Counted from the stretch's first letter, positions 7,717-61,620 are shown. The stretch is DNA of 64,000 bases from Opitutales bacterium (GCA_965226885.1 CBDDEL010000013.1:98480-162479), one strand, 5' to 3'. The notes: generated by a model not told the origin, from the letters alone. Translations and numbers: made by a program.

Positions 7717-8820
7717 ATGAAAAAAGCAATCCTATTCCTGGCTTTGGCCTGCTTCTTTGGCCAGGGCAGGGCGGAGGATATGAGTTTCCCCATCCAGTCC
7801 AGGGAGATAATCTCCCCGGTATACGCCATTGATCGTATTTACAAATCGATGCAGGGCCCGCAGAGCACACGCGAGGTTACTCTGGGCCATAAAATCGAGA
7901 CTCCGGAGTTACTGTGGATTACGGGCTACCGGGCCCATATGGTCGGACCCGATGGACGCACCCCCCAATCGCAGGAATTTATGTGTCACAGCAATCTCGA
8001 TATCGACATGAGCCAACATCGAAAGTTGTTTCATTGGAAGAAAAATTCCAGCAATAGGCTCTTCACACTCTCCCAAGGTCAATTCGAAATAGAATTTCCC
8101 AGGGGGTTTGGCATTCCCATTATGTCTAACGAAGTTTTTTCCCTGACCACCCAGGTGCTTAACCTCAATGTCGAAAAGGCAAACTTGAATGTGCGGCACA
8201 AGGTGACAATTGATTACGCGAAGGACAAGGATTTGCAGGAGCCGATGAAACCTTTGTTCATGAAAGCCGCCAATGGGCTGGTGCTGGTTGAGGGTGAGGA
8301 CGGATACTACAACGAAGCGCAGCCCAAGGTTGAATTGCATGGGCCCGGCTGCCTGGTCGGCGAGGGTGTGACCGGCCGTTACCGCCTGGATAAATTCGGC
8401 CGCAAATTTAGCGGACACTGGATCGTCAAGCCGGGCCGTGAAATCAATAGAACCCTAGTAACGAACTGGATGAATCTGCCTTTTGATACACGGGTTCATT
8501 ATATAGCCATCCACCTCCATCCGTTTGCGGAATCCCTGGGAATCCCTGGAATTGAAGGATTTAACTGCCGGCCAAACGATTTTTAAGAGCCAAGTGCGAT
8601 CCAGCAGCGACAAAAGTGGCATTGATGAGGTGGAATACTATTCCAGCGCCGAAGGCATTCCCGTCTGAAGGCATTCCCGTCTATAAGGAAGGACCATGAA
8701 TACGAATTGACCAGCCATTATCACAATACGACGGATAAAAATCAGGATTCCATGGCGGTAATGTTTCTCTACTTGCTGGATAAAGAATACCAGGACATCC
8801 AATTATCCAGCGGCATTTAA
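7717..8820 (+). pseudogene. Secreted protein resembling Cu type II (PHM/DBH-like) monooxygenase C-terminal domain; 3' end broken by three tandem duplications
   Basis: Signal peptide; HLHPF motif; removing duplications of 10, 16 and 4 bp restores ...AESLELKDLTAGQ...EGIPVYKDHEYELTSHYHNTT...DSMAVMFLY...* (358 codons). Confidence 0.7.
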
Positions 8821-8827
8821 AACAAGT

Positions 8828-9187
8828 ATGGAGAAAGTAAACTTAAGGGAAAAATTTGGTCTCTTCGAAAAACTGTGGACTCCCAAGATCGTGGGTGAAT
8901 TGAACGGTCAGTATGTCAAATTGGCCAAAGTTCAGGGAGAAATGGTTTGGCATAGTCATGAAAATGAGGACGAGTTGTTTCTGGTTGTCCAAGGCGCCCT
9001 CACGCTCCACTTGCGCGATCAAAAAATCTGTCTGAACGAGGGGGAGTTTTTCATCGTGCCGCGTGGAGTCGAACACAAACCCGAGGCCGATGAGGAAACC
9101 CAAATTGTCCTCTTCGAGCCAAAATCAACTGCTCACACAGGCAATGTGAAATCGGAACTGACGGTGGAACGCCAGGTGTGGATTTGA
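8828..9187 (+). CDS. Cupin domain protein
   Basis: WHSHENEDELFLV...GEFFIVPRGVEHKP. Confidence 0.85.
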   Translation: MEKVNLREKFGLFEKLWTPKIVGELNGQYVKLAKVQGEMVWHSHENEDELFLVVQGALTLHLRDQKICLNEGEFFIVPRGVEHKPEADEETQIVLFEPKSTAHTGNVKSELTVERQVWI

Positions 9188-9209
9188 GATAGGTTCTAGA
9201 AAGGCCTAG

Positions 9210-9722
9210 ATGAAACTGATTGAACCAATTCCATATCAATCCATGCCTGTGGCGATTATAGCCGTTTGCCTGCTTTTTCTGAACACGAGCTGCCGTCAAA
9301 CGGATGAATTGAATTTGGCCGCAGAAAAAGCGGTTCTAATGCAGACGGATCGCGATTTTTCCAGAAAATCGGTTGAGGAAGGAGCGGCCGAAGCATTCCG
9401 AGCCTACCTGGCAGAGGATGCCATGACAATGCCGGCAGGCTCAAGCCCCGTTTTTGGCCGTGAATCCATCTACGAGGGAATGAAACCGGACCAAGACAAA
9501 TATGTCCTGTCCTGGGAACCCCAGGATGGCAAAGCGGCCCAATCCGGCGATTTTGGCTACACCTGGGGAAAATATACCATTACTACCAAAGGGAAAGACG
9601 GCGAGCCGGTGAAAAGCCATGGTAAATACCTCAATGTTTGGATAAAGCAGGCCGATGGCTCCTGGAAGGTTTTGGTGGATATGGGCAATAAAAGCCCTTC
9701 GCCGGAAAGCGGGGAGAAATAA
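9210..9722 (+). CDS. DUF4440/NTF2-like (SnoaL-like) putative lipoprotein
   Basis: Signal with Cys (LNTSC); SGDFGYTWGKY...GKYLNVWIKQADGSWKV..DMG. Confidence 0.75.
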   Translation: MKLIEPIPYQSMPVAIIAVCLLFLNTSCRQTDELNLAAEKAVLMQTDRDFSRKSVEEGAAEAFRAYLAEDAMTMPAGSSPVFGRESIYEGMKPDQDKYVLSWEPQDGKAAQSGDFGYTWGKYTITTKGKDGEPVKSHGKYLNVWIKQADGSWKVLVDMGNKSPSPESGEK

Positions 9723-14285: not shown

Positions 14286-14431
14286 ATGCTTGATTGCAGG
14301 CGGGTAGGCGGTAGTTTTACAAGCCCTTGCCTCGCAGTGCCTGTTCTCTTGAAAAGAAGAAGGCTGTCTGCGCAATATCACGCAAACAGGCTTATCTTCA
14401 TTTCAATAAAGGATCAAGGATCGGATTAAGA

Positions 14432-16860: not shown

Positions 16861-16910
16861 CTGACCACAAAAGGGAATGCGCTTACTGACCACAAAAGGG
16901 AATGCGCTTA
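16861..16910. repeat. Perfect 25-bp tandem duplication upstream of the SDR gene
   Basis: CTGACCACAAAAGGGAATGCGCTTA x2. Confidence 0.95.
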
Positions 16911-24045: not shown

Positions 24046-24787
24046 CTAATTGTGCGGGATTATCTCGGTGGGATGAATCAGGATCTCCTCAATGGCGGCT
24101 TGCCTGGGCAAGTTGAGAACCAGAGAAACACATTCGGCGATATCCTCGGGCTGCAACATCTGTGAACGGGCCTCGGCCGTCGGCGGATGGGGCCGCTTGT
24201 CCAGCAGTGGGGTATTAATATCTCCGGGGAAAATGCCGCAGGCGCGGATTCCGTTGCGACGCTCCTCCTTGTTGATAGTTTCGGTGAGACCAGCCAGGCC
24301 GAATTTTGATGCTGAATAAGCGGCGCCGGCTTTTTCCGAAACCCATTTACCGGCAACTGAATTGATGTTGACAATGGTTCCTTCTCGCTGGTTTCGCATG
24401 GTCGGCAACACCGCCTGGATACAGTTAAAAGCTCCTTCCAGATTGGTTTTCAGGACGAGCTGAAAGTCCTCCAATGTGACCGTTTTCAAAGAGCGTTTGG
24501 CAATAGCGTTTGGCAATGTTCAAGCCGGCCGAGTTGACGAGGGCACCCAGGCCGCCAAATTTTGCCAAGACACCTGCGGCCATGGCGAAAATCGCTTTGG
24601 AATCGGTAATATCGCAAGGACATACCCTACAGTCTTCCGGCTGGTTTTGACACAAATCGGCCGTCCCCTGCAATGTATGTTCGCTTCGTCCCACGAGGGC
24701 GATTTGCCAGCCTGACCGGGCAAGCTTGATGGCGATCGGCCGGGCCACACCGCTGCCCGCTCCAGTTATGACTATAGTTTTATTCAT
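24046..24787 (-). pseudogene. SDR oxidoreductase frameshifted by a 13-bp tandem duplication
   Basis: ITGAGSG in the 5' ORF and YSASK in the 3' ORF; AGCGTTTGGCAAT x2 at 24492-24517; removing one copy gives 243 codons. Confidence 0.85.
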
Positions 24788-29923: not shown

Positions 29924-29958
29924 CGGATTTCCTTTGTTTGAAATTTGTTTGTTAATTA

Positions 29959-40519: not shown

Positions 40520-40550
40520 TATTCTCAATGGTGTATTCTCGATAAATAAA

Positions 40551-41000: not shown

Positions 41001-41019
41001 TTTTATTCAGCCCCCTAAA

Positions 41020-41076
41020 CTAAACCACAATATCCGTGCTAAACCACAATATCCGTGCTAAACCACAATATCCGTG
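41020..41076. repeat. Perfect 19-bp tandem triplication between mraZ and rsmH
   Basis: CTAAACCACAATATCCGTG x3. Confidence 0.95.
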
Positions 41077-41079
41077 CCT

Positions 41080-41286: not shown

Positions 41287-41305
41287 TTTCCTCCATCCTA
41301 TCGCC

Positions 41306-42646
<1,341 letters not shown>

Positions 42647-42650
<4 letters not shown>

Positions 42651-46016: not shown

Positions 46017-46029
46017 ACCCAATCGAGCC

Positions 46030-48545: not shown

Positions 48546-49858
48546 ATCAAACTCACACATTGAAAACAGTTGCGCATAAATTCCTCGCAACCATAAGGCA
48601 GCCAGTGGCCGTATTGGGCGCCGGAGTGAGTGGAAAAGCTACCCAAGGCCTTCTGCGGCGATTGGGGTTGCCCTCCGTATTGTATGACCAACGCCCGGTC
48701 GAGGGAGCGAGGGGTGATTTTGGCCATGAACAGACCCGGAGCCATCGCCTGATTATTTACAGCCCCGGTTTTGCGCCCGACCACCCGTGGCTGCAAATGG
48801 CCCGGTCCGCTGGTTGTCTCTGTTTAGGCGAAATCGATTTCGCCTCACTGTTTTTCCACGGAGAGGTCATTGCCATAACGGGAACCAACGGTAAGACAAC
48901 CTTGACCGAATTTCTGGCGGAGGCCTATCATAAAAACGGCCGCCGGGCCTTTGCGGTGGGCAATAACGGTCGCCCGCTGGCAACTGTGGCGGGGAGGAAA
49001 AATACCGAAAACAAACTGGCCGTATGCGAAGTAAGTTCGTTCCAGTCGGAGACTTTGCGTCATTTTCGCTGCAACGCTCTTCTGTGGTCCAATTTTCAGG
49101 AAGATCATCTCGACCGCCATTCATCCCTGGAAGGTTATTTCAAGGCCAAGTGGAACCTGGTCAATCGAATCGTGCGGGAAGATTCAGTTTTTGTGGCGGG
49201 GGAGAGCGTTTTTTCCGCCGCAAGGCGCTATGGATTTGAGTTGCCGCCGAGTGCTTCCATGGTTGAGGAAAAAGGAGAATCCTCCTGGCCCTTGCCGGTT
49301 GCATCCGCCTTCGCAGCCCCGCCCCAAGCCGCTAATTTAAGATTGGCCCGGCGATTCTGGAAACTTAAAGGACATCCGGAAAATGTTCTCAAGAATAGCA
49401 CCGCTTCTTTTCCTGCCCGAAGGCACCGCTTAAACCACGTTTGCAAAATCCGCGGCGTATCTTTCTGGAATGATTCCAAGGCCACTAATTTTGCCTCCGC
49501 CCAGGCGGCTCTGGAATCATTTTCCGGTCCTGTCCATTGGATCGGCGGGGGCTGGAACGGCGGCGGCGCTTTGATTGCATTTGCACGCCATATGGCTCGG
49601 AAAACAAGAACTGCCTATCTCATCGGCGACACCGCGCAAACCATCGCTGGGGAATTCAGCCGGGTATGTTCTGCGGCCCGCGTCTGCCGTAACCTGAAAG
49701 AAGCTGTGGCCGAAGCCATGCGGGCCGCCCGGCCGGGAGAATCTATCCTGTTCAGCCCTGGCTTTTCCAGCTTCGACATGTTCAAAAATTATGCCCATCG
49801 AGGAAAATGCTTTGAAAAAACCGTTTTGGGTTTGAAGAAAATTCACCCAGGTTTTTAA
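48542..49858 (+). CDS. murD: UDP-MurNAc-L-Ala:D-Glu ligase MurD
   Basis: LGAGVSG, ITGTNGKTT, EVSSFQ, EDHLDRH, NDSKATN, SFDMFKNYAHRG. Confidence 0.92.
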   Translation: MNQTHTLKTVAHKFLATIRQPVAVLGAGVSGKATQGLLRRLGLPSVLYDQRPVEGARGDFGHEQTRSHRLIIYSPGFAPDHPWLQMARSAGCLCLGEIDFASLFFHGEVIAITGTNGKTTLTEFLAEAYHKNGRRAFAVGNNGRPLATVAGRKNTENKLAVCEVSSFQSETLRHFRCNALLWSNFQEDHLDRHSSLEGYFKAKWNLVNRIVREDSVFVAGESVFSAARRYGFELPPSASMVEEKGESSWPLPVASAFAAPPQAANLRLARRFWKLKGHPENVLKNSTASFPARRHRLNHVCKIRGVSFWNDSKATNFASAQAALESFSGPVHWIGGGWNGGGALIAFARHMARKTRTAYLIGDTAQTIAGEFSRVCSAARVCRNLKEAVAEAMRAARPGESILFSPGFSSFDMFKNYAHRGKCFEKTVLGLKKIHPGF

Positions 49859-49886
49859 TTTCTCTATCACCTCCATCCGCACACCA

Positions 49887-50813
49887 ATGAAATTAATAAA
49901 AATCTTTGCCCTGGTCTTGAGCCTGCACCTACTCGCCATCTGTTTTCTCTTTGTTTTGCCCGGTTGCGCCACAACCGACAAGGAGTCTGCCGAGGCTGCC
50001 TCCAACGAAACTTCCACCCTTGGAACCGAAAGCGGCGATAGGGCCGCTCCACCCGCCGGAAGGGAGCTTCATCCGGATTTTAATGCCGGTTTGACCGATG
50101 CCGCTGAACCCACTGCCAGCCCACCCGCCGGAAGATACCCGCCCACCAGGCCCAGTTGGGATTTCCAGAGCGATACGACTGATGAACCTCCTCAGGAAAT
50201 TCTCAAACCGGCCCCAAAAACGCCGGAACCCGCTTATTCATCCAAACAAGAAGATGAGAAGGGTATCTTGATGCACTCAGTTCAATCCGGCGATACGTTG
50301 AGCCGAATTGCCCGAAAATACGGAACCACGGTGGCGGAACTGAAAAGAGCCAACGCTCTGGAAAGCGACCTCATTCGGATAGGCGATACCCTCATAATAT
50401 TGGGAGGCTCAGCCCCTCAGCGAAAAGGGCCGCCGCCCGCGGCCGCTCCTGCGAAAAAGAAATCGACCGCATTGGGTGAAGCTGTCCACATTGTGGTTTC
50501 GGGAGATACTCCCAGTGCAATAGCGCGCCAATACGGCATGAGCGCGAGAGACCTCATGGAAATTAACCATATTTCCGACCCGACAAAACTGCAGATTGGC
50601 CAAAGGCTCCTTGTCCACAAAACCGGGGGAGCGCCCGCCACCACTCCTCGATCCGCTTCGGCCATTCGTTATGATGCGGTGGAGGACAGTTCAACTCCTA
50701 TTCCGGCTGACACTATGGACGAGCCTGAGCGCTCCCTTTTCGATGAGGAGGAAGACATCCCCGTCATCCCTCTGGACAACGATGAAGGCGTGGGGCAAGG
50801 CTCCACCGATTAA
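49887..50813 (+). CDS. Exported protein (putative lipoprotein) with two LysM domains
   Basis: Signal ending LPGC; HSVQSGDTLSRIARKYG and HIVVSGDTPSAIARQYG. Confidence 0.88.
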   Translation: MKLIKIFALVLSLHLLAICFLFVLPGCATTDKESAEAASNETSTLGTESGDRAAPPAGRELHPDFNAGLTDAAEPTASPPAGRYPPTRPSWDFQSDTTDEPPQEILKPAPKTPEPAYSSKQEDEKGILMHSVQSGDTLSRIARKYGTTVAELKRANALESDLIRIGDTLIILGGSAPQRKGPPPAAAPAKKKSTALGEAVHIVVSGDTPSAIARQYGMSARDLMEINHISDPTKLQIGQRLLVHKTGGAPATTPRSASAIRYDAVEDSSTPIPADTMDEPERSLFDEEEDIPVIPLDNDEGVGQGSTD

Positions 50814-50878
50814 CCTCAATATTTTATTGGCCGGAGCCCCTCATTTACCATCTGTAAAAATTAACATTCTAAATAAAC

Positions 50879-52021
50879 ATGCAGGCTGGGCCAAGTTCAG
50901 GATGGTATTTAATTAAGCGCGATGGGCCCATCTTTTTAATTCTTCTGGCCGTGGCCGGCCTGACCCATCTCGGTTTTATCATTCTATTCAGCGCTACCCA
51001 GGCTCACCTGGGCGGATTGAGCGCCATCGTCGGGAAGCAGGCTCTTTGGCTTATAATAGCCCTTCTGGCGGGAGGAACAACCGCGTTTCTGAATTTGGAA
51101 AACCTGCGCCCACTGGCCTGGCATCTGGCCGCATTGGTGGGCGCGCTTCTTTTGCTCGTGCTTTTGCCCGGAGTTGGCGTAATGGTTAACGGGGCCAGGC
51201 GCTGGCTCGATCTGGGTCCCATCAATATGCAGGTTTCCGATCTTGCCAAAATTGCCATGATTTTTCTACTGGCCCATTATTTGGCCGCCAATCAGCGTTG
51301 CCTGGGTTCTTTTGCCAAGGGTTTTTTCATTCCCATGGCCATTGTCGGAACGGTTTTTCTGCTCGTTATGCTGGAGCCCGATTTCGGGACCGCTTTTCTT
51401 CTGGGTCTGGTTGGGTTCACCATGCTATTCCTGGCCGGCGTCCGTTTGGCTTATCTTTTGCCGTCCCTCGGCCTGGGAGTTCTTTTCTTTGCTCTGGCCA
51501 TAATGTTCGATCCCGTGCGGATGAAGAGAATTACCTCTTTTCTCGATGTTGAGGCCCATAAAAGCGACGGCGCTTACCAGCTTTGGCAGGGCATCCTGGC
51601 CTTTGGGGCGGGCGGTCTCAATGGGGTCGGTTTGGGTAACGGCCGCCAGCAGAATTCCTTTCTTCCAGAAGCTCACACCGATTTTATTTTTCCCATCATC
51701 GGGGAGGAGCTCGGCCTCTTATTTTCGGCAGGAGTGGTCGCTTTGTTTCTTTTGATTTTCCTCTGCGGCCTGTGGAATCTTCGCAGAGCGCCCAATTTAT
51801 TCCAATTTCTTTTAGCGGCCGGAGCCGTTATTATGATAACCTCTCAGGCACTCATCAATATCGGGGTGACCACCGGCTGTCTGCCGACCAAAGGAATGTC
51901 CCTGCCCTTTATCAGTTACGGCGGCTCCGGGTTGGTAGCGATGTTCATCCTGGTGGGGATTCTGATCAATTGCCTGCGAACCTGGGGCCAATCCCCATTA
52001 CCTAAACCGGTAACGCTATGA
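50879..52021 (+). CDS. ftsW: SEDS protein FtsW
   Basis: NGARRWL, EPDFGT, LPEAHTDFIF, PTKGMSLPFISYGGS. Confidence 0.94.
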   Translation: MQAGPSSGWYLIKRDGPIFLILLAVAGLTHLGFIILFSATQAHLGGLSAIVGKQALWLIIALLAGGTTAFLNLENLRPLAWHLAALVGALLLLVLLPGVGVMVNGARRWLDLGPINMQVSDLAKIAMIFLLAHYLAANQRCLGSFAKGFFIPMAIVGTVFLLVMLEPDFGTAFLLGLVGFTMLFLAGVRLAYLLPSLGLGVLFFALAIMFDPVRMKRITSFLDVEAHKSDGAYQLWQGILAFGAGGLNGVGLGNGRQQNSFLPEAHTDFIFPIIGEELGLLFSAGVVALFLLIFLCGLWNLRRAPNLFQFLLAAGAVIMITSQALINIGVTTGCLPTKGMSLPFISYGGSGLVAMFILVGILINCLRTWGQSPLPKPVTL

Positions 52022-53154
52022 GCAAATTCGTCATCGCCTGCGGGGGCACGGGAGGGCATTTATCGCCGGGCATATCGGTGGCCGAGCAATTATTGGACAG
52101 AGGTCACCATTGCTGGCTGATTATCAGCAAAAAACAAGTCGATGCACGATTGATCCTTAATTACGGGCACCTTAATTCTATCCGTGCGCCCGGTTCCGGT
52201 TTTTCCCTGCGGCCCATGCTCTTCGTAAATTTCGCAATTCAACAATTCAAGTTGCTCATTTTCTCCTTCCGCTTCCTGCGCTCCATAAAACCCGATGCCA
52301 TCATCGCATTTGGAGGCTTCATGACCACTGGATTCACAATTTCCGGCTTTATTCTGGGCTGTCCCATTGCCCTGCATGAGGCCAACCGCAAACCCGGAAA
52401 AGCCGTTCGCTATCTGCGCGGCCTGGCCGATCGCCTTTATTTGCCTGAGGGTGTCCTCGTCACCGGCCTGCCGCCGGACGCTATCAAGCATTTCGGCCTG
52501 CCATTGCGCAAGGATATCAATCCGATATCGAAAAAAGAGGCCCGAAAAAGCCTTAATGTTGAAATTGCCGGGCGGTTGCTGGTGGTGTTTGGGGGAAGCC
52601 AGGGAGCCCAAATTCTCAACGAGTGGGTGATGGAGCGGGCGGAGAGCCTGGCGGCCGAAGGTGTCAATATTTATTGCGTTACCGGATTGGGCAAAGGCGT
52701 GCAAAGCGTTTCCGAGTATCAGCTTCCGGATGGGCGCGTCATCAAGACTTATTTCATTCCTTTTTCCGATTGCATGAGCGCGGTTCTCTCCAGCGCCGAC
52801 CTGGTTGTTTCCAGGGCCGGCGCCGGTTCCATTGCCGAACTCGAGCATTGCCGGGCCCCCTCCATACTGGTGCCGTTCCCTTATGCGGCGGACAACCATC
52901 AGTTGGCTAACGCCCGGTTTTTGGAGCAGCACGGCGGGTGCGTCGTCCTCGAGCAAAGCCGCCTCGCAACCTTGCAGGAGGAAGTTCTCGAACTCATTTA
53001 CAATGACTGGCTGCTGGCGAAATTCCGGCAGAACCTGGAGCGTATTGAGAGGGGTGTCTGCTCGAAAAAAATTGCCCAAGATTTGGAAAACCTGGCTGTC
53101 AACCTGCTCGGGCCGCAAAGACCAAGGCGCCCCAAAATGCAAATGCCCGCATGA
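52018..53154 (+). CDS. murG: MurG glycosyltransferase
   Basis: GGTGGHLSPG, HEAN, GGSQGA, SRAGAGS, ADNHQ..NA. Confidence 0.95.
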   Translation: MSKFVIACGGTGGHLSPGISVAEQLLDRGHHCWLIISKKQVDARLILNYGHLNSIRAPGSGFSLRPMLFVNFAIQQFKLLIFSFRFLRSIKPDAIIAFGGFMTTGFTISGFILGCPIALHEANRKPGKAVRYLRGLADRLYLPEGVLVTGLPPDAIKHFGLPLRKDINPISKKEARKSLNVEIAGRLLVVFGGSQGAQILNEWVMERAESLAAEGVNIYCVTGLGKGVQSVSEYQLPDGRVIKTYFIPFSDCMSAVLSSADLVVSRAGAGSIAELEHCRAPSILVPFPYAADNHQLANARFLEQHGGCVVLEQSRLATLQEEVLELIYNDWLLAKFRQNLERIERGVCSKKIAQDLENLAVNLLGPQRPRRPKMQMPA

Positions 53155-55487
53155 AAACGAACGAAAATAACATTTTTATGCTTGGAGTTGGCGGTATGGG
53201 AATGACCCCGCTGGCGATTTACCTACGGCAGATGGGTTGCCCGGTTTGCGGTTTCGATGACCATTTGCGTCCACCCGTTGGCGCCCTGCTGCGGAGTGCC
53301 GGGGTGGAGTGGATCGATTGCCCCGTTCTGCCCGAAAATACGGACAAGGTCGTTTACTCATCCGCCATTTCTGCCCAACACCCGTTATTGATAGATGCCT
53401 CCCGGCGCGGACTCCCCATGCTCCGGCGCGGAGAAATGATGGCCGAGGTTCTCGCTCCAAAGAAAGTTGTCGCGGTGGTGGGAAGTCACGGAAAAACCAC
53501 CGCCGCGGCCCTCCTGGCGCACTCCCTTTTGCGCAACCGATTCCCCTTCGGCTATATAGTGGGCGCACTTTTTGAGGGGGACGATTTGCTCCCCGCTCGT
53601 TATTCCAAAAGCGAATGGGTGGTCGCCGAAATCGATGAAAGCGACGGCACCATAGACCTTTTTCAGCCCGAAATTACGCTCGTTCTCAACCTGGACTGGG
53701 ACCATGCGGACTTTTACACCAGCCTCCGCCAATTGGAGGAGACGTTTAAAGCGCTTGTGCAACGAACGAGGAAAGCCCTGTTTCTGCCCGCCAATTGCGA
53801 GAAATTGAATCGTTTATCCGCAAATGTGAGCATCGAGAAAATCCGCTTGGGCCCCGGCGGTGATTATCATTTCAATTTCATGGAAACGGGCAGCGGCTTT
53901 TTAAAATTGGGGCTGGGCGGGCGTTTCTCCGGGCAATCGGAATTGCTTCCGTTGGAAGCCTCTTTTAATGCGGAAAATGCTCTGGCCGCTCTCGCCGTCG
54001 GTCACTACCTGACTGCAGGATCCCTGCAACCGGGCAGCCTGGAAAATTTCCCCGGAATCCGCAGGCGGCAGAAAAAGCTCTACGACTCCCAGAGATGTGT
54101 CGTTTTTGAAGATTACGCCCACCATCCGCGGGAAATAGAAGCCATGATTCGGTTTGCCCATGATGTTTATTCGGATCGCAAACTTTGCATTGTATTTCAG
54201 CCGCATCGTTTTTCGCGGACGCTGCGCCTCAAAAAGGAACTGGCTCGTTCCCTTGAAGGAGCTGATGAACTCTTTCTCATGGATGTTTATGCGGCCAGTG
54301 AAGCTCCTCTGGTAGGAGGTTCCAGCGAGGACCTCATCGAATGTTTTGCCGAGGCCGAGGATTTATCCCCTCGGAAAATTTCCTCCTATTCCCGTTTGTC
54401 CTCTATTTTGAAGAAAGAAATAGAAGAGCCATCCGTAATTCTTTTTCTGGGAGCTGGAAACATCGACCAATGGGCCGGCGCCTTTGTCAGGGAACTCCTT
54501 GAAGCTAAAGAACCCAAACTTGCGGAATTTACGCCCGACCCAATTCATAATAGCAATAGTAATTCCTGGTGGGAAAAATTGCGTTTGGTTGTCGATCCCG
54601 AGACCTCGCTATCGACCGGAGTCTCGCTTGCCGATAAAACGACCCTGCGGGTGGGCGGACCCGCTTTCTTTTACGCCGAACCTGCCGGTGTGGAAGATTT
54701 GAGTTTGCTCCTTAAAAGCGCCGCCATTCGATCTCTACCCGTTTATTTTTTGGGGCGAGGCTCAAACCTGCTCGTGCCCGACGACGGATTCGAGGGCCTT
54801 GTTATTCGGCTCAACCATCCTTCCTGGCGGACCATCGAACTGCTGGAGGGGGGCCGGCTGTGGGTGGGCGGCGGCGCCCGCTTGAAACAAATTTGCGGAG
54901 AAGCTTGCCGCCTCGGTTTGGCCGGGCTTGAGTTTCTGGAGGGAATTCCCGGATCCCTCGGTGGTTCCTTGCGGATGAACGCCGGGGCCATGGGCGGCTG
55001 GATTTTCGATGTCGTGGAGGAAGTCCAGTTCATGACCCTGGATGGCGTTTTGAAAACCCTCCCACGGGAGGAATTTCAGGTGGGTTACAGGGAATGTCGC
55101 GAACTTCTCCAAACGGTGGCTGTCGGGGCCATTTTGCGCACCCGTAACAATGCCTCTAGCGGCTCCATCAGGGCGACCTTGGAAGAGTTTTCACGGAAGC
55201 GGAAAAGCTCTCAGCCGAGGGAACCGAGCGTGGGCTGCATTTTTAAAAATCCAGAGGATTCCTATGCCGGAAGAATCATCGATGAACTCGGTTTGAAAGG
55301 TCTTCGCGTGGGAGAGGCGGAAGTGTCTCAAGTGCACGGAAATTTTATCATCAATCGGGGCGGCGCCACTTGTCTGGACGTGGTCAGCCTGATTCGCAAT
55401 ATCCGCCGGGAAGTGCAAAGGCGAACCGGCATCGAACTACAGCCCGAGGTCCTCCTCATGGGTAAAAGCTGGGAACAGATTTTATGA
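53151..55487 (+). CDS. murC/murB: Fused MurC-MurB (UDP-MurNAc:L-Ala ligase / UDP-GlcNAc-enolpyruvate reductase)
   Basis: One 778-aa frame: GVGGMGM, GSHGKTT, DYAHHP (MurC), then LRVGGPA, GRGSNLL, MNAGA, GCIFKNP, HGNFIIN (MurB). Confidence 0.92.
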   Translation: MKTNENNIFMLGVGGMGMTPLAIYLRQMGCPVCGFDDHLRPPVGALLRSAGVEWIDCPVLPENTDKVVYSSAISAQHPLLIDASRRGLPMLRRGEMMAEVLAPKKVVAVVGSHGKTTAAALLAHSLLRNRFPFGYIVGALFEGDDLLPARYSKSEWVVAEIDESDGTIDLFQPEITLVLNLDWDHADFYTSLRQLEETFKALVQRTRKALFLPANCEKLNRLSANVSIEKIRLGPGGDYHFNFMETGSGFLKLGLGGRFSGQSELLPLEASFNAENALAALAVGHYLTAGSLQPGSLENFPGIRRRQKKLYDSQRCVVFEDYAHHPREIEAMIRFAHDVYSDRKLCIVFQPHRFSRTLRLKKELARSLEGADELFLMDVYAASEAPLVGGSSEDLIECFAEAEDLSPRKISSYSRLSSILKKEIEEPSVILFLGAGNIDQWAGAFVRELLEAKEPKLAEFTPDPIHNSNSNSWWEKLRLVVDPETSLSTGVSLADKTTLRVGGPAFFYAEPAGVEDLSLLLKSAAIRSLPVYFLGRGSNLLVPDDGFEGLVIRLNHPSWRTIELLEGGRLWVGGGARLKQICGEACRLGLAGLEFLEGIPGSLGGSLRMNAGAMGGWIFDVVEEVQFMTLDGVLKTLPREEFQVGYRECRELLQTVAVGAILRTRNNASSGSIRATLEEFSRKRKSSQPREPSVGCIFKNPEDSYAGRIIDELGLKGLRVGEAEVSQVHGNFIINRGGATCLDVVSLIRNIRREVQRRTGIELQPEVLLMGKSWEQIL

Positions 55488-55488
55488 A

Positions 55489-56427
55489 ATGAACGAGGAT
55501 GTGCGCATAGCCGTTATTTTTGGCGGGCCCTCCGAAGAGCGCGAGGTTTCACTGGCCACCGGCCAAGCTGTGGCGGATGCTTTACGACATAATTTTGAAG
55601 TCGATCTCTTTGCAATTGAAGACGACGCGTTACCGGTTGGACTCGATCCGGAACGGCATGTCGTTTTCCCTGCCTTGCACGGCCGGTTTGGGGAAGACGG
55701 CGGCATCCAGCAGTTGATGGAAGAGGCCGGTATCGCTTATGCCGGCACGGGCCCTGAAGGAAGCCGCCTATGTTTTGCCAAAGAAGAAACCAAGGCAAAA
55801 GTTGATGCCGCTGGTGTGCGGGTTGCGCCCGGTGTGTCCTTCACGGTTCCCGGTCCGGTTCCGGCGGCTGAGCGAATTTTGCAGCTGGGTCCTCCCTTCG
55901 TTCTCAAACCCGACCGGCAGGGAAGCAGCATCGATTTGCTCATGATCGACGGAGCGGACGAATTACATGGCATGTTCAGCCGCCTTCAACCCGGCCGATG
56001 GCTTTTGGAAAAGAAAATCGAGGGCCGGGAAATAACGGTTGGCATGCTCCGCAGAAAATCCCTCGGATTGGTCGAAATCCGGCCCCATGAGGGTTCTTAC
56101 GATTATAGGCACAAATACACCAAGGGCCTTACCGAATATAATTTTCCGGCCCGGGTGGAGACAGCCGTCGAAATGGAAATCCGCCGGGCGGCAGAAATAG
56201 CTTACGCCGTTTGTGGTTGCCGCGATTTTGCCAGAATCGATTTTATGCTGAATGAGAAAAAAGAGAGTTATTTCCTTGAGATCAACACATTGCCCGGTCT
56301 CACTGCCACAAGCTTGCTTCCCATGAGCGCCTCCTGCGCCGGTTACGATTTTGTCCAACTGGCCCGTGAACTGGTGCTCCCTGCGCGGAAGCGCCATCTG
56401 TCCGCCACAGCCACCGTCAAATCGTGA
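55489..56427 (+). CDS. ddl: D-alanine--D-alanine ligase
   Basis: GGPSEEREVSL, LHGRFGEDG, QGSS, EINTLPG. Confidence 0.94.
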   Translation: MNEDVRIAVIFGGPSEEREVSLATGQAVADALRHNFEVDLFAIEDDALPVGLDPERHVVFPALHGRFGEDGGIQQLMEEAGIAYAGTGPEGSRLCFAKEETKAKVDAAGVRVAPGVSFTVPGPVPAAERILQLGPPFVLKPDRQGSSIDLLMIDGADELHGMFSRLQPGRWLLEKKIEGREITVGMLRRKSLGLVEIRPHEGSYDYRHKYTKGLTEYNFPARVETAVEMEIRRAAEIAYAVCGCRDFARIDFMLNEKKESYFLEINTLPGLTATSLLPMSASCAGYDFVQLARELVLPARKRHLSATATVKS

Positions 56428-57371
56428 AAAAGTATTCCTCCAAATCCAACCATTCTTCCGCCGCCTCGCGTACCTGGCGTACCATTGAGCAAAAAGGCGG
56501 TCGCAAAGCCGTGACTGATTTGGTCCGCAAGCGCAGACGCCGGGTTTATCTGAAAGCGCCGGCCGCATTTTTAGTGGTTATTCTTTTCATTTCGTCCTTG
56601 GCCACGGGAGTTTATTTTTTCCAGACTCATCGCGACGCGTTCAGGTTTTCGGGTCCTTCCGAACCCCTCAAATTAATTCATTTCGAAACTGACGGGGTGC
56701 TCACCCGGGATTGGTTCGCCGCTGCCGTGCCTATCGCCAGGGGGGCTAAATTAATGGACCTGGACATCCATCGGATCAAGGAAGACATGGAAAATTTCGG
56801 GCAGATAAAAGAAACCACCGTATCCCGCAAATTTCCCCATGAATTGCATATAAGCGCTAGGGAAAGAGTTCCCGTATTGCGCGCCCGTGTTTCCACGGAA
56901 AGAGGAAGCAAACCCCAGGAAAGACTTATCTCTCGAGAGGGAGTGGTTTATCAAGGTATGGAATACCCGAGATCCCGGCTGGCTCATTTGCCTTATCTCG
57001 GAGGGGTTCGTTTTTCCCGCGGGCCAGAGGGCATAGAACCGGTTGGGAATATACGGGAACTGATTCGTCTTCTCACTTTAACCCGCACTCGTTTTCCGGA
57101 GATTTACGATGACTGGAAAGTGGCTTCCCTGCAACAACCGGGCAATGCCCTCGGAGTGGACCAGGCATTGATAACCATTAAAAGCCGAAACGTTAAGGAG
57201 GTTGTCTTTACACCGCCTGACTTTGAGTGGCAGTTAGGACAGCTTGAGCAAATTATTGAACATTCCAGCCAGCGAGGTATTCGCGTCATTAAAAGAATCG
57301 ATCTCTCCCTGGGAGATCAGGTGGTGGTTCAGGATTTTCCGGACCTGCGGCGAAAAAGGTTCCGCAATTGA
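56424..57371 (+). CDS. ftsQ: Cell division protein FtsQ/DivIB-like
   Basis: Position; basic N-terminus, single TM, POTRA-like segment (VSRKFPHELHISARERVP). Confidence 0.7.
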   Translation: MKKYSSKSNHSSAASRTWRTIEQKGGRKAVTDLVRKRRRRVYLKAPAAFLVVILFISSLATGVYFFQTHRDAFRFSGPSEPLKLIHFETDGVLTRDWFAAAVPIARGAKLMDLDIHRIKEDMENFGQIKETTVSRKFPHELHISARERVPVLRARVSTERGSKPQERLISREGVVYQGMEYPRSRLAHLPYLGGVRFSRGPEGIEPVGNIRELIRLLTLTRTRFPEIYDDWKVASLQQPGNALGVDQALITIKSRNVKEVVFTPPDFEWQLGQLEQIIEHSSQRGIRVIKRIDLSLGDQVVVQDFPDLRRKRFRN

Positions 57372-57397
57372 AGGATGCTTATTAAATTTAAAAACTT

Positions 57398-58606
57398 ATG
57401 GCTTATAACAAAGTAATCGCCGCGGTAGAGATTGGAACTTCCAAAGTGGTTGTGCTGGCCGGGGAAATCATCGGCGGCCGCAGCCTGAACATTATCGGGA
57501 TGGGTCAATCGACCGCCAGGGGGGTGAAAAAAGGTGAGATTGTCGATTTTCGGGCTGCCAGCGATTGCACTTGCGCCGCTATCATTTCTGCCGAAAAAAA
57601 TGCCGGAGTAACGATTGAAGGCGTTTATCTGGCCCAAAGCGGCCGTCATCTGGAAGGTTTTTTTGACAAGGGGGAAATTTCCGTTAGTTCGCATGATGGC
57701 CAGGTGCGGAAATCCGATATCGACCATGTTGTGGAAAACGCCAAACGTAAAGAAGTGCCTGCCGGGCGTGTTTATATCCACCATATCAGGAACGGTTTTT
57801 TTCTTGATGGACGACCGGTGGACGACCCCTATCAAATGAAAGGGGACAGGCTTGAGGTGGGCTACTGGCATGTGCATGGAGACGAAAGGAAGGTAACCGA
57901 CAACATCCACGTTATCAACGGGTTCGGTCTGCGGGTCGAGGATATGATTGTTTCCGGCATTGCCTCAGGTTCCATGGTCGTGGAAGAGGCGGAAAAAACC
58001 AATGGTGCGCTCCTGCTGGACATTGGTTGCGGAACCACCGATTACGTTCTCTATCGTAACGGCGTTATTCAACGCACGGGCGTTATTTGTGTCGGCGGCG
58101 CTCATCTGACAAACGATTTATCGCTTGGTTTGCGCGTAAATCCCAAACATGCCGAAAACCTCAAACGTGAGTTCGGCAACGCCACCCTCGAACTGGAAGA
58201 CCCGGCGGAAAAAGTCTGGCTCATCGGCGACCTCACGATAGGAGACCGGGCCATTCCGAGGAAGGCCATCTGCCAGATTTTGAATGCCCGCATGGAGGAA
58301 TTGTTCAATATTTTGAAAAAAGAGCTTGGTTCCTCTATCACCAGTCATGAACTACCAGGAGGCATAGTATTAACCGGTGGCGTTTCCCGTTTGTCCAATT
58401 TAGCCGATCTCGCCTCGAAGATATTTGAATTGCCGGCCCGCATCGGGGAAAATCCAAGCTGGGTGCGTGAAGATTTGCGTGATCCGGAATACAGCTGTGT
58501 GCTCGGGCTGCTTTATTACGGTCTGACGGCCGAACGTTCGGAAGAGGAGGGTAAACCGAAGGCCGGCATCCTCGGTAAAATGACCCGGTTGTTTAATATA
58601 TCCTGA
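57398..58606 (+). CDS. ftsA: Cell division protein FtsA
   Basis: VEIGTSKV, GVKKGEIVD, DIGCGTTD, VLTGG. Confidence 0.93.
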   Translation: MAYNKVIAAVEIGTSKVVVLAGEIIGGRSLNIIGMGQSTARGVKKGEIVDFRAASDCTCAAIISAEKNAGVTIEGVYLAQSGRHLEGFFDKGEISVSSHDGQVRKSDIDHVVENAKRKEVPAGRVYIHHIRNGFFLDGRPVDDPYQMKGDRLEVGYWHVHGDERKVTDNIHVINGFGLRVEDMIVSGIASGSMVVEEAEKTNGALLLDIGCGTTDYVLYRNGVIQRTGVICVGGAHLTNDLSLGLRVNPKHAENLKREFGNATLELEDPAEKVWLIGDLTIGDRAIPRKAICQILNARMEELFNILKKELGSSITSHELPGGIVLTGGVSRLSNLADLASKIFELPARIGENPSWVREDLRDPEYSCVLGLLYYGLTAERSEEEGKPKAGILGKMTRLFNIS

Positions 58607-58629
58607 AATTCCTGACCGAAATATTAAAA

Positions 58630-59916
58630 ATGACGCTTGAAAATCTCTCCATAGCCGAAAATTCGGAGGAAAATATAAGGATCAAAATCATCGGGGTGGG
58701 CGGAGCCGGCAATAATGCCGTGGACCGACTCAAGCTGGATAATTTGAGCAATGTCAACCTCGCCGTGGTCAATACCGACGGGCAGGTATTGGCCCAATCA
58801 CCACTGGCAGAAAAACTACTCATCGGTGGTAAGGTCACCCGTGGCCTGGGTGCTGGAGGCGAGGCCGATCTGGGCCGACAGGCGGCTTTGGAGGATCGCG
58901 AAAGTCTGCGTAGGATTGTTGATGGAGTGGACCTTGTTTTCCTTCTAGGCGGTCTGGGCGGCGGCACCGGTAGCGGGGCGTTGCCCTTGCTTGCTGAAAC
59001 TGCGGTCGAGCAAGGCGCTCTCGTCATCTCTTTTATCACCATGCCTTTCACTCTGGAAGGAGAACGGCGCCTGCGTCAGGCTGAAGAAAGCCTCACGGCT
59101 TTGCGTAATAATTGTCATGCCGTCATAGACCTGCCTAACGATATATTACTTCAGCAAGTCGAGGAAGACGCCACTGTTCTGGAAGCGTTTGCCATTGCCG
59201 ATGAGTGGATCAACCGCGGAGTGCGATCCATTTGGGATCTCATCCATAAAACAGGGCTGATCAATATCGACTTTGCCACACTTCGCAAATCCTTCCATCT
59301 TCGCGGTGGAAAAACTCTCTTCGGCTTGGGCCGGGGGGAAGGCGGTGATTATGTCAATAAAGCGATTAACGATCTCATGCTTTGTCCGTTACTGCATACA
59401 CCCGGTTATGCCCGGCGGACCGACAATCTTATTGTCAACCTAACCGGTGGCGCCGATCTGACCCTAACCAAAATCAACGAAGTTATAGCTGTCATGGTCG
59501 AAAAATTCGGCAGCAAAGAAAACACCGTTATCGGGGCCGTTATTGATGAAAGTCTGCAAAACACCCTCGATATCTGCGTCATCGGAATGACCGATGTGGA
59601 AAATAATCGTGGTTTCATGAAAACCTCAACTTCTACCTCGACGGTAACGGCAAAATCCGCATTTGAAAAAAGAAGCCCCGCCGTGATTGGTCAGCCTGCC
59701 GTCAACGCTCTTGATGCGCAGGGCAGGCCGAAGAAAATCCACCAGTCAAAACTCAAACCGCGGAAAAGTAAAAAAGGCAAAGGACAGCCCGAGTTCGAAT
59801 TTACACGAACGGAAGAGCAGAGAGGCTATTTCGAAACAACCGAACGCAATCTCTACGATGGCGAAGACCTTGATGTACCTACCTATCTGAGACACGGCAT
59901 CAAGATTATTCTTTAA
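58630..59916 (+). CDS. ftsZ: Cell division protein FtsZ
   Basis: GVGGAGNN, GGGTGSG tubulin signature, C-terminal DLDVPTYLR peptide; T7 loop reads NIDFAT. Confidence 0.95.
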   Translation: MTLENLSIAENSEENIRIKIIGVGGAGNNAVDRLKLDNLSNVNLAVVNTDGQVLAQSPLAEKLLIGGKVTRGLGAGGEADLGRQAALEDRESLRRIVDGVDLVFLLGGLGGGTGSGALPLLAETAVEQGALVISFITMPFTLEGERRLRQAEESLTALRNNCHAVIDLPNDILLQQVEEDATVLEAFAIADEWINRGVRSIWDLIHKTGLINIDFATLRKSFHLRGGKTLFGLGRGEGGDYVNKAINDLMLCPLLHTPGYARRTDNLIVNLTGGADLTLTKINEVIAVMVEKFGSKENTVIGAVIDESLQNTLDICVIGMTDVENNRGFMKTSTSTSTVTAKSAFEKRSPAVIGQPAVNALDAQGRPKKIHQSKLKPRKSKKGKGQPEFEFTRTEEQRGYFETTERNLYDGEDLDVPTYLRHGIKIIL

Positions 59917-60308
59917 TCTGTTCCAACTGTTTGAACCAATCCTCTTTATCCTAACGTATAAATTAACTCGGTCACATTGCCAGCACCGGGAAAAAGAAGG
60001 AAGAAGATAACGCAGGTCCTTCAAAAAAGAATCAGCCCAATCAGGCTCAGGCTGCATAAAATCAATAAAACGGTCAAGGCCCGCCTCTCCTGCTCTGTCA
60101 ATCTCGAGGGCATAAATTTGAAGATTAATAAGGGGTTTACCTATTATCTTAAAAAATAGCTAATTTAAGAGTGTTCTGACAATGAAATTCTCCTGAATTA
60201 ATTTCAGTGTCGCGATTTAATTTTCAAATGCAAATGCAAATCAATATATTTTAATTATTAAAACGCTTGCTTATCTTCATAACAGATATTTTATTATGAA
60301 TTTTAAAA

Positions 60309-60728
60309 ATGCAAAACTATCAAGATTACCAGAAGTACCTGCAAAGGGGAAAATCCGGCGCCACAACTGCCAATGAGCAAGCAATGAGCAAGCTTGGTGT
60401 CGCTATTTTGCCGCCGAAAAATATACCGGGAGCGGTTGTATTGTGGAATGGGGGTGTTGGATGGGCTCGCTAACGAGCTCCACCTGTGAAGGATTACCGG
60501 AAAACCCTAGGATAGGTAATGATCGTTTTTATTATGTCTATGATCTTTTTGAATGAATAAAATTTTTTGATATTATGGCTAAAGACGGCCCTCATAGTGG
60601 AAAATTCAAACCGGGAGATTGTTTCTATTCCTATTTCTGCGACTTAATGAGTTTACACAAAGATTACCTCAATATAATAAAAAGCGATCTTAATAAAGAA
60701 AAATGGCATGGAGCCAGAATCGAGTTAG
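60309..60728 (+). pseudogene. Class I SAM-dependent methyltransferase remnant (absent from the ORF track)
   Basis: Removing the 11-bp duplication at 60371-60392 gives ...YTGSGCIVEWGCWMGS...YDLFE*IKFF...KWHGARIEL, with a TGA at 60554 and truncation by IS1380 at 60729. Confidence 0.65.
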
Positions 60729-61474
60729 CCCGGATATTTCATGAAGGGTAAAGTTTGGCTCGTTATTGCTATTGGAGATGGATTTCTTTGTATTTTGAGC
60801 AGATCGTCTTGATTTTTAGGTGTTTTTCAGGGTGTAGAGACACTGCCCCCTTTCCCCCATTGGTTCGGTAGTGCCGGGGGCAGCACCAATGCACCCTTTA
60901 GGTTGGCACCAATCGGCGGGCCGCATGGTTGAAAAGACTGGCCCAAGGATAACTCTCACTTAGGTGAAAGTGAATCGTTCGGGTGTTGCGCACGATGACC
61001 GCTCCGATCTTGATTAATTTGAGCCGCAGGGTGTGGCATTGGGCCCGCGCCCACTTCGTCCCTTTTAAGGCTAACCGGCGCATGGCTTCCATCAAGGTGT
61101 AGGCCAGCGCCGACAAGAGCAATCGCCACTGATTGGCCCACCATTGATGGGCGCTGGTGCGCTCGCTGAACAATTGCATCTGTTCCTTGATGCGGTTCTC
61201 CATTTCACCGCGGCCACAGTATACCTTGTCGTAAAGCTCCTGGGGATCGCCCGGCAGGTTCGTCACCACGAAGCGCGGGTTGGACCCCTGTGCGGTGTGT
61301 TCGGCTTTATGGATGACCAACCGCAGCCATCGCCACGAATCGGCAGCATAGACGAAGTCCTGGAATAACCGTTGTTTTTTACCCCTTAGTTCGAACCATT
61401 CTTTGGCCTGCTTTTGCAACTGCTGGGCGTCTTGCTGCAAGCGTGCATTGCGAGCCATCCCCACGATGTAACTA
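60729..61474 (-). mobile_element. IS1380-family element copy A (3' portion), interrupted by IS5 copy B
   Basis: Starts with inverted repeat CCCGGATATTTC; the encoded 188 aa match the C-terminus of copy B; ends at the IS5 terminus. Confidence 0.88.
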
Positions 61475-61620
61475 GAGGCTGTCCCAAAAATATAAAGATT
61501 TTATAGTCAACTGGATGACGTTGGATGACGTTGATAAAAAGAGCCGGAAAGAGCAAGTTTTTGCTCGATCCGGCCAAAAAAGGGTTCTATAATTGAGTTA
61601 GCGAAAATCAATATAGCTAG

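Follow-up and report, generated by a model that had tools for sequence, protein, structure and literature searches.

The question raised by this locus, a 64-kb stretch of DNA from an uncultured marine Opitutales bacterium (the window), is whether its many short tandem repeats record a mutational process of their own and, if so, of what kind. Repeats were located by an exhaustive scan and by TRF. All 12 perfect tandem repeats listed in the earlier note were recovered with exact coordinates and unit lengths, and the scan added three more with units of at least 9 bp (9 bp at 2430, 14 bp at 40513, and 9 bp at 42684), for n=15 in the window, all of them perfect head-to-tail tandems. Simulations of the window under Markov models of order 1, 3, and 5 gave means of 0.36–0.54 repeats of this size, with none of the 200 runs exceeding 3; 15 observed versus 0.4–0.5 expected corresponds to a Poisson P of ~4e-17 and bears out the excess that had been claimed. 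The ten additional repeats of 4–8 bp listed earlier all exist, but taken together, repeats of this length show no enrichment (292 observed versus 282–319 simulated), and pooled 7–8 bp tandems number 11 against ~5 expected, six of the 11 being 8 bp. Four of those ten (8685, 14409, 35526, and 60225) are strain-polymorphic and are therefore real events.

Unit lengths range from 4 to 25 bp with a median near 11, and no unit longer than 25 bp was found when the window was scanned up to 200 bp. Copy number is two everywhere except at 41020 (three copies) and 60225 (2.8 copies). Contingency-locus SSR/VNTR arrays, in which one unit recurs many times with phase-variable copy number at or ahead of surface or regulatory genes, were considered and rejected, the units being unrelated, the sites heterogeneous, and nearly all repeats two-copy; no Neisseria-type uptake sequence occurs in the 64-kb window. 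The duplications and the mobile elements and genes around them are given below, with reference to S2, a second strain at 0.24% divergence compared with the window over ~49.5 kb, and S3, an independent assembly whose comparisons cover the window beyond positions 1–26.7 kb.

1498..2299, MITE-like element, ~800 bp
2430..2447, 9 bp x2 perfect, CCTTGCAAC, in frame in an unannotated ORF, 0 bp microhomology
8529..8549, 10 bp x2, frameshifts and truncates the ORF at 7717–8586
8651..8682, 16 bp x2, window-only (single copy in S2), 0 bp microhomology
8685..8693, 4 bp x2 (AAGG), window-only versus S2
14409..14422, 7 bp x2 (AAGGATC), window-only, non-coding
16861..16910, 25 bp x2, intergenic between divergent genes for an aldehyde dehydrogenase and an SDR, 0 bp microhomology, window-only
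24492..24517, 13 bp x2, frameshifts an SDR gene (gene intact in S2, 242 aa)
29956..31788, minus strand, ISa, ISNCY/IS5-like, ~1.83 kb, terminal inverted repeat TAGAGGCTGTCCCAAAA
31633..31655, 11 bp x2, spans the ISa transposase start codon
32299..32318, 10 bp x2, non-coding, within the integrase island
33368..33409, 21 bp x2, in frame (7 aa) in a tyrosine integrase gene, also in Logan contig L004
34686..34707, 10 bp x2, ahead of the SRAP gene, shared by the window, S3, and L004 (one copy in S2)
35526..35539, 7 bp x2 (GTGCCTT), non-coding, limited to the window, S3, and L004 (one copy in S2)
38008..38025, 9 bp x2, in frame within a hypothetical ORF of 144 aa, one copy in S2
40513..40540, 14 bp x2, just upstream of mraZ, single copy in S2
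40551..59916, plus strand, dcw cluster from mraZ to ftsZ, 0 frameshifting duplications
41020..41077, 19 bp x3, between mraZ and rsmH, three copies in the window, two in S3, one in S2
42684..42704, 9 bp x2 plus a 3-bp extension, in frame at the 5' end of ftsI, common to all three strains
60225..60241, 6 bp x2.8 (CAAATG), one copy more in the window than in S2
60371..60393, 11 bp x2, downstream of ftsZ, shared by the window and S3 (one copy in S2)
61472-61617 and 63189-64000+, fragments of ISa copy 2 flanking ISb
61512..61533, 10 bp x2, in the left-end fragment of ISa copy 2
61618..63191, plus strand, ISb, IS1380-family, inserted into ISa copy 2

Several of these sites can be read against a relative. 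At 8529, S2 carries a single copy and its reading frame runs on past the site. The SDR gene is intact in S2, so the duplication at 24492 is a derived insertion that created a pseudogene. The start of the ISa transposase is occupied by a 7-bp version of the duplication in S3 and by two different 21-bp duplications in the S2 copy, while the 61512 duplication is missing in the homologous stretch of ISa copy 1 (31654–31789). The repeat at 42684, common to all three strains, is for that reason either older or a chance repeat. Three events (8529, 8651, and 8685) are clustered in a stretch of 165 bp, their units totaling 30 bp.

Comparison of the window with S2 disclosed 112 SNPs and ~22 differences in the presence or absence of a duplication across ~49.5 kb. 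These differences divide into 14–15 that are window-only and 7 that are S2-only, so both lineages are affected, each strain gaining its duplications independently. Duplications stand to SNPs as ~0.2 overall and ~1 in non-coding DNA, a relative measure for window versus S2; in the 3.9 kb of aligned non-coding DNA, ~10 duplications stand against 10 SNPs. Among between-strain indels of at least 4 bp, ~22 of ~26 are tandem duplications, compared with 3–4 non-tandem indels of at least 5 bp. A sister species showed one polymorphic 21-bp duplication among 20 SNPs.

Related genomes lack this density. In 80 dcw-centered Opitutales loci (1.30 Mb), the baseline is 2.8 per 64 kb, mostly 9-mers, versus 15 in the window; 200 kb of E. 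coli K-12, with prophage and IS regions counted in, gives ~1 per 64 kb. Being dcw-centered, the Opitutales controls are rich in coding sequence. When duplications are counted per SNP, another Opitutales species represented by the same type of assembly has 1 duplication per 103 SNPs (Fisher P=2.6e-5 versus window/S2), and E. coli has 0 per 359 SNPs (P=9e-14 versus window/S2).

An artefact of sequencing or assembly in long-read metagenomes might be suspected, since the strain contigs carry assembler-style names (ctg..l, ctg.._6x_l) and some have low coverage (3x, 6x). The same duplications, however, are present in the window and S3, which are assemblies under different ENA accessions that differ by SNPs, and no excess is seen in other Opitutales contigs assembled in the same ways. 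Logan contig L004, built separately as a k-mer assembly of public run ERR14231557, whose reads may also underlie the assembly of the window itself, agrees with the window at 100% identity across 5.9 kb and matches four duplications exactly. The strong pattern of selection, with enrichment in non-coding DNA and in-frame lengths in coding sequence, likewise argues against an artefact, an explanation that we find hardly credible. The duplications are heritable, recent mutations.

That pattern is evident in both location and frame. The non-coding 13% of the window holds 11 of 18 events, a 10-fold enrichment, and all four duplications in intact coding sequences are multiples of 3, whereas the two that cause frameshifts both lie in genes intact in S2. 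In the 11.3 kb of dcw coding sequence, 0 duplication polymorphisms were found versus 23 SNPs. The suggestion that dcw coding sequence is free of such repeats is nearly right: no frameshifting duplication is present, but one in-frame 9-bp repeat is found in ftsI (42684). The accompanying proposal of purifying selection on real mutations agrees with each of these observations, and the duplications are filtered by purifying selection.

Selection could also be asked to explain the excess itself. If mutational input were normal and this IS-rich, pseudogene-accumulating lineage had relaxed selection or a small effective population size, that would be in keeping with the IS expansion and with the fresh pseudogenes (SDR and the 7717 ORF), which suggest weak selection. 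Relaxation cannot, however, lift the non-coding duplication-to-SNP ratio to ~1, nor can it shift the spectrum of microhomology or invert the usual bias toward deletion (in Burkholderia pseudogenes, insertion:deletion is ~0.76 with few events >15 nt), and we judge it distinctly unlikely as the explanation. Positive selection for regulatory duplications in promoters or 5' UTRs, akin to the tuning seen in phase variation, would account for clusters upstream of mraZ, in the divergent promoter, and at the ISa transposase start (4–5 independent events). Many events, though, lie in pseudogenes, 3' regions, and IS debris with no plausible regulatory role, and selection of this kind explains where duplications are retained rather than their origin or their lack of microhomology; we regard it as quite improbable.

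The junctions bear more directly on origin. For 33 events, drawn from ~100 kb of a single species complex, the match run beyond a whole number of units is 0, 1, 2, or at least 3 bp in 18, 10, 3, and 2 cases, respectively, where chance predicts 18.6, 9.3, 3.5, and 1.7 (chi-square P=0.98), so the description of these duplications as microhomology-free is well founded. The published norm for bacterial tandem duplications is ~25–30% without microhomology and ~50% with more than 3 bp. Ordinary slippage or microhomology-mediated duplication (Okazaki-flap or slipped-strand mispairing), here made visible by a tolerant genome, accounts for most tandem duplications in bacteria generally; a 21-bp duplication in the S2 ISa copy with 9 bp of microhomology fits it, and the copy-number changes at 41020 and 60225 are slippage on existing repeats. 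As a general explanation it is nevertheless unlikely: more than 3 bp of microhomology is found in 1 of 33 events where published figures predict ~50% (binomial P=4e-9), the overall distribution is at chance level, and normalization to SNPs, which takes away the influence of tolerance, gives a non-coding ratio of ~1:1 versus 0 in E. coli.

Other features of the junctions were also evaluated. Direct repeats spaced by 1–5 bp, as junction filler would produce, were not in excess (3 observed versus 1.7 expected), and those spaced by 6–20 bp showed a mild excess (13 versus 4.8) and may be decayed older duplications. No boundary-base motif was found at the duplication boundaries, and 60-nt pre-duplication windows showed no hairpin or quasi-palindrome bias relative to random non-coding windows (folding energy P=0.62). 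Cleavage by type IA topoisomerases typically leaves cytosine at −4; this base is depleted at the boundaries (3 of 30), a count of low power that depends on an assumed nick geometry. Despite the 4–5 independent events at the ISa 5' end and the 8529/8651/8685 cluster, clustering is by estimate not clearly beyond chance given the constraint on location.

Footprints of transposition, either an IS or MITE insertion later excised to leave its target-site duplication or an aborted transposition, had been offered as one source. The genome is IS-rich and also harbors an active MITE-like family that makes 8-bp target duplications: a sister-species copy 99% identical to the element in the window (L093, 14654–15455) has termini GGTAGTGT...ACACTACC and a target duplication of 8 bp. 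In the other ISa copy, ISb sits at the spot matching the 31633 duplication, within 0–1 bp of the boundary of that 11-bp unit. Separately, the 2430 duplication lies ~130 bp from the MITE-like element. IS target-site duplications are also short direct repeats that arise by fill-in of a staggered cut, but their length is fixed per element (~4–6 bp for ISa, ~4 bp for ISb), whereas the units here span 4–25 bp continuously and show no association with IS occupancy. Tandems of 7–8 bp, pooled, are at most ~2-fold over expectation. No IS-end remnants were found at the junctions, and comparable sites in S2 and S3 have a single or different copy number and never an element, S2 being a plain single copy without an IS at every comparable site. 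These observations make footprints highly improbable, and the proposal is not supported.

Taken together, a real, lineage-specific, homology-free duplication process very probably operates in this lineage. We are evenly divided on the fuller reading, in which this process is genuine and ongoing and generates 4–25 bp head-to-tail duplications de novo by fill-in at nicks or staggered breaks; the fill-in mechanism itself is put forward tentatively. A duplication would start with two nearby single-strand breaks on opposite strands, or alternatively with a type IA topoisomerase that is trapped or religates wrongly, or with some other source of nicks. The breaks would be processed by fill-in or strand-displacement synthesis and the ends then joined exactly, as a result of which the sequence between the nicks would be copied twice. 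The upper limit of ~25 bp could reflect the length of duplex able to melt between two nicks. Once formed, a duplication would change copy number by ordinary slippage, as at 41020 (1, 2, or 3 copies) and 60225. Exact, filler-free junctions, sizes capped near 25 bp, and the lack of microhomology are consistent with fill-in at staggered nicks; if breaks are staggered, 3' overhangs should in addition give rise to deletions in the same size range, likewise free of homology, but few such deletions turned up.

Bacterial NHEJ (Ku/LigD) fills in 5' overhangs; its junctions are expected to show frequent non-templated additions or small losses, whereas those here are exact and 1–5 bp spacers are at 3 versus 1.7. 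Likenesses to paired nicks and NHEJ fill-in do exist, in that a unit length equal to the nick stagger is predicted, junctions are exact and homology-free, and size is bounded by duplex stability, but those systems involve engineered nicks or 4-nt overhangs. The same fill-in model was proposed for the E. coli topA R168C mutator and for paired nicks in plants (a 2016 PNAS study, as cited in PMC6954433). With respect to candidate genes, a tblastn search with E. coli TopA gave no match in the window and all 98 loci, Ku/LigD was not found in ~100 kb of sequence from this lineage, gyrase and polA are absent from the window and related loci covered, and Pfam and NCBIfam annotation revealed no DNA-repair genes among the window ORFs. 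Exact-protein look-ups gave no match, probably owing to ORF starts that differ from those of the called genes.

The nearest known parallel is the E. coli topA R168C mutator, in which head-to-tail duplications of 2–19 bp arise de novo, independent of repeats and in hotspots, at 5e-4 per genome per generation versus 1–2e-3 for point mutations, by a mechanism that its authors state "remains unknown" (PMC6954433; Nucleic Acids Res 2020). The present events match its hallmarks of head-to-tail tandems, independence from repeats and microhomology, and a short length range (4–25 bp here), and they too appear de novo in non-repeated sequence. The ratio of duplications to point mutations, 0.25–0.5 there and 0.2 overall or ~1 in non-coding DNA here, may likewise be within a few-fold of one, and the E. 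coli hotspots might be likened to the ISa 5' end, where clustering is not clearly beyond chance. The two differ in that topA R168C is a laboratory mutant with a defined substitution, while the present case is a natural lineage plus a sister species, with no cytosine at −4 signature at the boundaries.

A second comparison is with microhomology-mediated tandem duplication (MTD), which is known from S. pombe and has also been reported in a range of bacteria (PMC8639346; bioRxiv 10.64898/2026.02.28.708716). Both produce short, reversible tandem duplications that seed repeats and later change in copy number (41020, 60225), but MTD arms are typically 3–4 bp or more, whereas matches here are at chance level with 1 of 33 above 3 bp. 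Membership in MTD was rejected, as arms are expected in most events and at least 3 bp is found in only 2 of 33. Non-microhomology tandem duplications are a recognized minority class in bacteria (bioRxiv 10.64898/2026.02.28.708716), whereas that class dominates this lineage. To speak of an unrecognized process, as the earlier note did, is thus an overstatement: given the topA R168C precedent, whose signature is published (PMC6954433), and the recognized non-microhomology class (bioRxiv 10.64898/2026.02.28.708716), the process is not wholly unrecognized. What appears to be new is a natural lineage dominated by repeat-independent duplication; the mutator type that it resembles has hitherto been known only from topoisomerase I mutants of E. 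coli in the laboratory.

The de novo origin of tandem repeats from non-repeated DNA is an acknowledged open question, and this lineage offers a comparative handle on it, as the topoisomerases, polymerases, nucleases, and ligases of the clade can be set against those of neighboring Opitutales without the signature. It departs from the deletion bias that bacteria are generally taken to have, with duplications that quickly create pseudogenes (SDR, ORF 7717) and remodel promoters (mraZ). In S2, a duplication fuses the TlyA and NadK genes. For annotators and variant callers, frameshifts in these long-read MAGs are real mutations and not sequencing errors. It is possible, although we hold this at less than even confidence, that this species and its sister form a natural clade with a heritable, constitutive mutator state in which duplication is as frequent as substitution in unconstrained DNA, caused by an altered type IA topoisomerase or an undescribed nick-processing or end-joining pathway. 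If so, the usual bacterial deletion bias would be reversed in this clade, and new tandem repeats would be seeded continually.

An exhaustive scan of the window for perfect tandem repeats with units of at least 9 bp recovered 15, comprising the 12 listed in an earlier note made from the sequence alone, each exact in coordinate and unit (that at 41020 present in three copies, as also found by TRF), and three more at 2430, 40513, and 42684; events are named here by their start coordinates. Sequences simulated from the window's own Markov order-1, -3, and -5 statistics contained a mean of 0.36–0.54 such repeats and never more than three, giving a Poisson P of ~4e-17 for the observed count. The excess that the note extended to units of 4–8 bp was not borne out, as this class is not enriched (292 observed versus 282–319 simulated) and only its 7–8 bp units are raised, mildly (11 versus ~5 simulated). 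All ten short repeats that it listed are present, and four are polymorphic between strains and therefore represent real events. Across the whole window, exact 9–10 bp direct repeats with a 6–20 bp spacer were ~2.7-fold above expectation (13 versus 4.8), many with copy-to-copy distances of 15–26 bp; these are possibly tandem duplications of greater age whose copies have diverged.

FtsZ places the organism in an uncultured family-level branch of the Opitutales (Verrucomicrobiota), with 58% identity to Ruficoccus and Cerasicoccus and 80–90% to a handful of MAGs, three of them from Oslofjord subsea-tunnel biofilms. Comparison sequences were obtained via exact-protein look-ups: S3 (ENA ERZ21829562), ~99.95% identical to the window where gap-free alignment was possible; L004, a contig of run ERR14231557 assembled separately from k-mers (Logan) and 100% identical to window 32795–38701; and a second strain, S2 (ENA ERZ28669063), with an SNP divergence of 0.24%. 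None of the contigs obtained is identical to the window as a whole. The S3 contig ctg254103l (L001/L003) differs from the window by scattered SNPs and a few indels, and its TPR gene, unsplit in the window (35644–36765), is split by 1–2 bp frameshifts. A small island at 32986–35466 carries a tyrosine integrase, an HTH_17 gene, a peptidyl-tRNA hydrolase fragment, and an SRAP (YedK-like) gene; together with the ISa/IS630 block (26.4–34.4 kb) it is arranged differently in S2. Within the cell-division and wall (dcw) cluster, MurC and MurB are encoded as one fusion protein of 778 aa (53151–55487), and a gene for a LysM-domain protein lies between murD and ftsW (49887–50813); both features are also found in the sister species and in one more distant Opitutales species.

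Outside IS elements, ~49.5 kb of the window could be aligned with S2; this comparison yielded 112 SNPs and ~22 tandem-duplication events of presence/absence or copy number. Fourteen to fifteen occur in the window lineage only (8529, 8651, 8685, 14409, 16861, 24492, 34686, 35526, 38008, 40513, 41020 in two steps, 60225, and 60371) and seven in S2 only (units of 5, 20, 24, 23, 11, 13, and 10 bp); the duplications are recent and have arisen in both lineages. Aligned non-coding DNA in the first 34 kb (3.9 kb) holds 10 SNPs and ~10 duplications, and the S2 loci equal the window in perfect tandems per kb. The sister species (CBDDCJ01) has an FtsZ 90% identical to that of the window; between two of its strains we counted 20 SNPs and a single 21-bp duplication, which is in frame. 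Non-tandem indels of at least 5 bp between the window and S2 number only three to four:

Non-tandem indels between strains
10993: 12 bp
36710: 18 bp
40439: 17 bp
37845: ~7 bp

Two of these four, with microhomology of 4–7 bp (GGATGCG, TGGC), resemble deletions of the ordinary microhomology type; the indel at 40439 has none. In S2 the tlyA-like (S4/FtsJ) gene has a 20-bp duplication at its stop codon, which coincides with a single 570-aa TlyA-NAD kinase fusion ORF (L002 11901–13613); the window encodes the two as separate genes of 259 and 274–300 aa (38670–40362).

Several observations indicate that the duplications are mutations filtered by selection, as the earlier note had proposed. Eight (33368, 34686, 35526, 38008, 40513, 42684, 60371, and 61512) are common to the window and S3, which differ by SNPs, and L004 reproduces four of these. 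Non-coding DNA makes up 13% of the window and holds 11 of 18 events, a ~10-fold enrichment, and all four duplications within intact ORFs have units that are multiples of three; overall, unit lengths show no such bias (9/28). The two frameshifting duplications (8529 and 24492) lie in genes that are intact in S2. For dcw coding sequence the comparison with S2 covered 11.3 kb and gave 23 SNPs and no duplication difference. An artefact would ignore reading frames. Three window-specific duplications cluster within 165 bp (8529–8693) in the 3' portion of a single gene; the units (10 + 16 + 4 = 30 bp) sum to a multiple of three, yet a shifted-frame stop at 8586 already truncates the ORF.

The same measures were taken in control sequences:

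Tandem repeats and duplication indels in controls
80 Opitutales dcw-centred loci, 1.30 Mb: 2.8 perfect tandems (at least 9 bp) per 64 kb, mostly 9-mers
E. coli K-12, including prophage and IS regions, 200 kb: 3 perfect tandems
E. coli K-12 versus strain DP051, 41.9 kb: 359 SNPs, 0 duplication indels
Another Opitutales species in the same ENA assembly style (26x and 3x coverage), 14.7 kb: 103 SNPs, one 5-bp duplication

Fisher tests separated the lineage from the Opitutales control (P = 2.6e-5) and from E. coli (P = 9e-14). Because the controls show low duplication-to-SNP counts and tandem densities, the excess is a property of this lineage and not general to bacteria, long-read assemblies, or IS-rich DNA.

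Units range from 4 to 25 bp with a median near 11, and a scan extended to 200 bp found none above 25 bp. Microhomology was scored as the match run beyond n times the unit. Among 33 events, runs of 0, 1, 2, and at least 3 bp numbered 18, 10, 3, and 2, against 18.6, 9.3, 3.5, and 1.7 expected by chance. The window's excess of microhomology-free tandem duplications is confirmed, and more strongly than the sequence alone could reveal. Slippage or microhomology-mediated duplication fails its defining test. Across bacteria, by contrast, variable tandem duplications are reported in a 2026 preprint mostly to carry microhomology (about half with more than 3 bp, ~25–30% with none; bioRxiv 10.64898/2026.02.28.708716), the reverse of this lineage. 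Direct repeats with a 1–5 bp spacer were not in excess, so the junctions are exact and free of filler; the boundaries share no motif (C at -4 in 3/30), and the hairpin tendency of the sites is that of random non-coding DNA. Relaxed selection alone would leave both the SNP-normalised ratio and the microhomology spectrum unchanged, and bacterial pseudogenes are reported to have deletion-biased, mostly sub-15-nt indel spectra, with which this explanation conflicts.

The earlier note's other suggestion, footprints of aborted or excised transposition, was evaluated against the mobile elements present:

Mobile elements
ISa, 29956–31788: ISNCY/IS5-like, second copy split by ISb, target duplication ~4–6 bp
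ISb, 61618–63191: IS1380-like, target duplication ~4 bp
MITE-like family, ~800 bp: window 1498–2299, L086 764–1559, L093 14654–15455, L098 15486–16300

Members of the MITE-like family end in the inverted repeats GGTAGTGT...ACACTACC and duplicate 8 bp of target (AAGAATAC, CAAAATTT). The window copy is 99% identical to one in the sister species, though FtsZ is only 90% identical, which suggests recent transfer or activity. The duplication units do not cluster at 4–6, ~4, or 8 bp, and comparable sites in other strains are free of elements, so that an IS or MITE footprint origin was rejected. What stands of the note's reading is a real, microhomology-free, selection-filtered process, given the chance-level flanks and the non-coding and in-frame bias. 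In every ISa copy the start codon and 5' UTR of the transposase are altered differently (window 31600–31660; L003 ~4885–4895; L005 14740–14830), by a duplication of 11 bp in the window and of 7 bp in S3, and by two different 21-bp duplications in S2. In the second window copy, which also holds the 10-bp duplication 61512, ISb is inserted within 0–1 bp of the 11-bp duplication boundary (61600–61620, 63185–63200). We take this site to be a local hotspot, or to reflect tolerance of or selection on transposase expression, rather than to be evidence of footprints. Through the 11-bp duplication, a short upstream ORF arises that overlaps the real start codon.

Among documented phenomena, the nearest is the topA R168C mutator of E. 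coli, which forms head-to-tail duplications of 2–19 bp in hotspots, independently of existing repeats, at ~5e-4 per genome per generation against 1–2e-3 for point mutations (PMC6954433). That study used galK/DOG and AZT forward-mutation assays and describes substitutions at two TopA residues, R168 and R35. Neither topA nor other repair genes occur in the window or in the sequences compared with it. The duplications of the present lineage are of the same kind, likewise need no existing repeat, and span a similar range of sizes; judged by their ratio to SNPs, their relative rate also seems to match. This precedent makes the earlier note's term "unrecognised process" an overstatement. The authors of that study weigh a direct role of the enzyme, through stable cleavage complexes or single-strand breaks, against indirect torsional strain, refer to tandem duplications that arise in plants when neighbouring nicks are repaired, and state that it is unknown how repeats form de novo (PMC6954433). 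Because the signature matches this mutator, we favor a nick or staggered break followed by fill-in, in essence the note's first suggestion; an end-joining or nick fill-in origin is plausible, and the ~25-bp ceiling might be set by the length of duplex able to separate between two nicks. A natural lineage whose repeat-independent duplications rival base substitution appears to be new.
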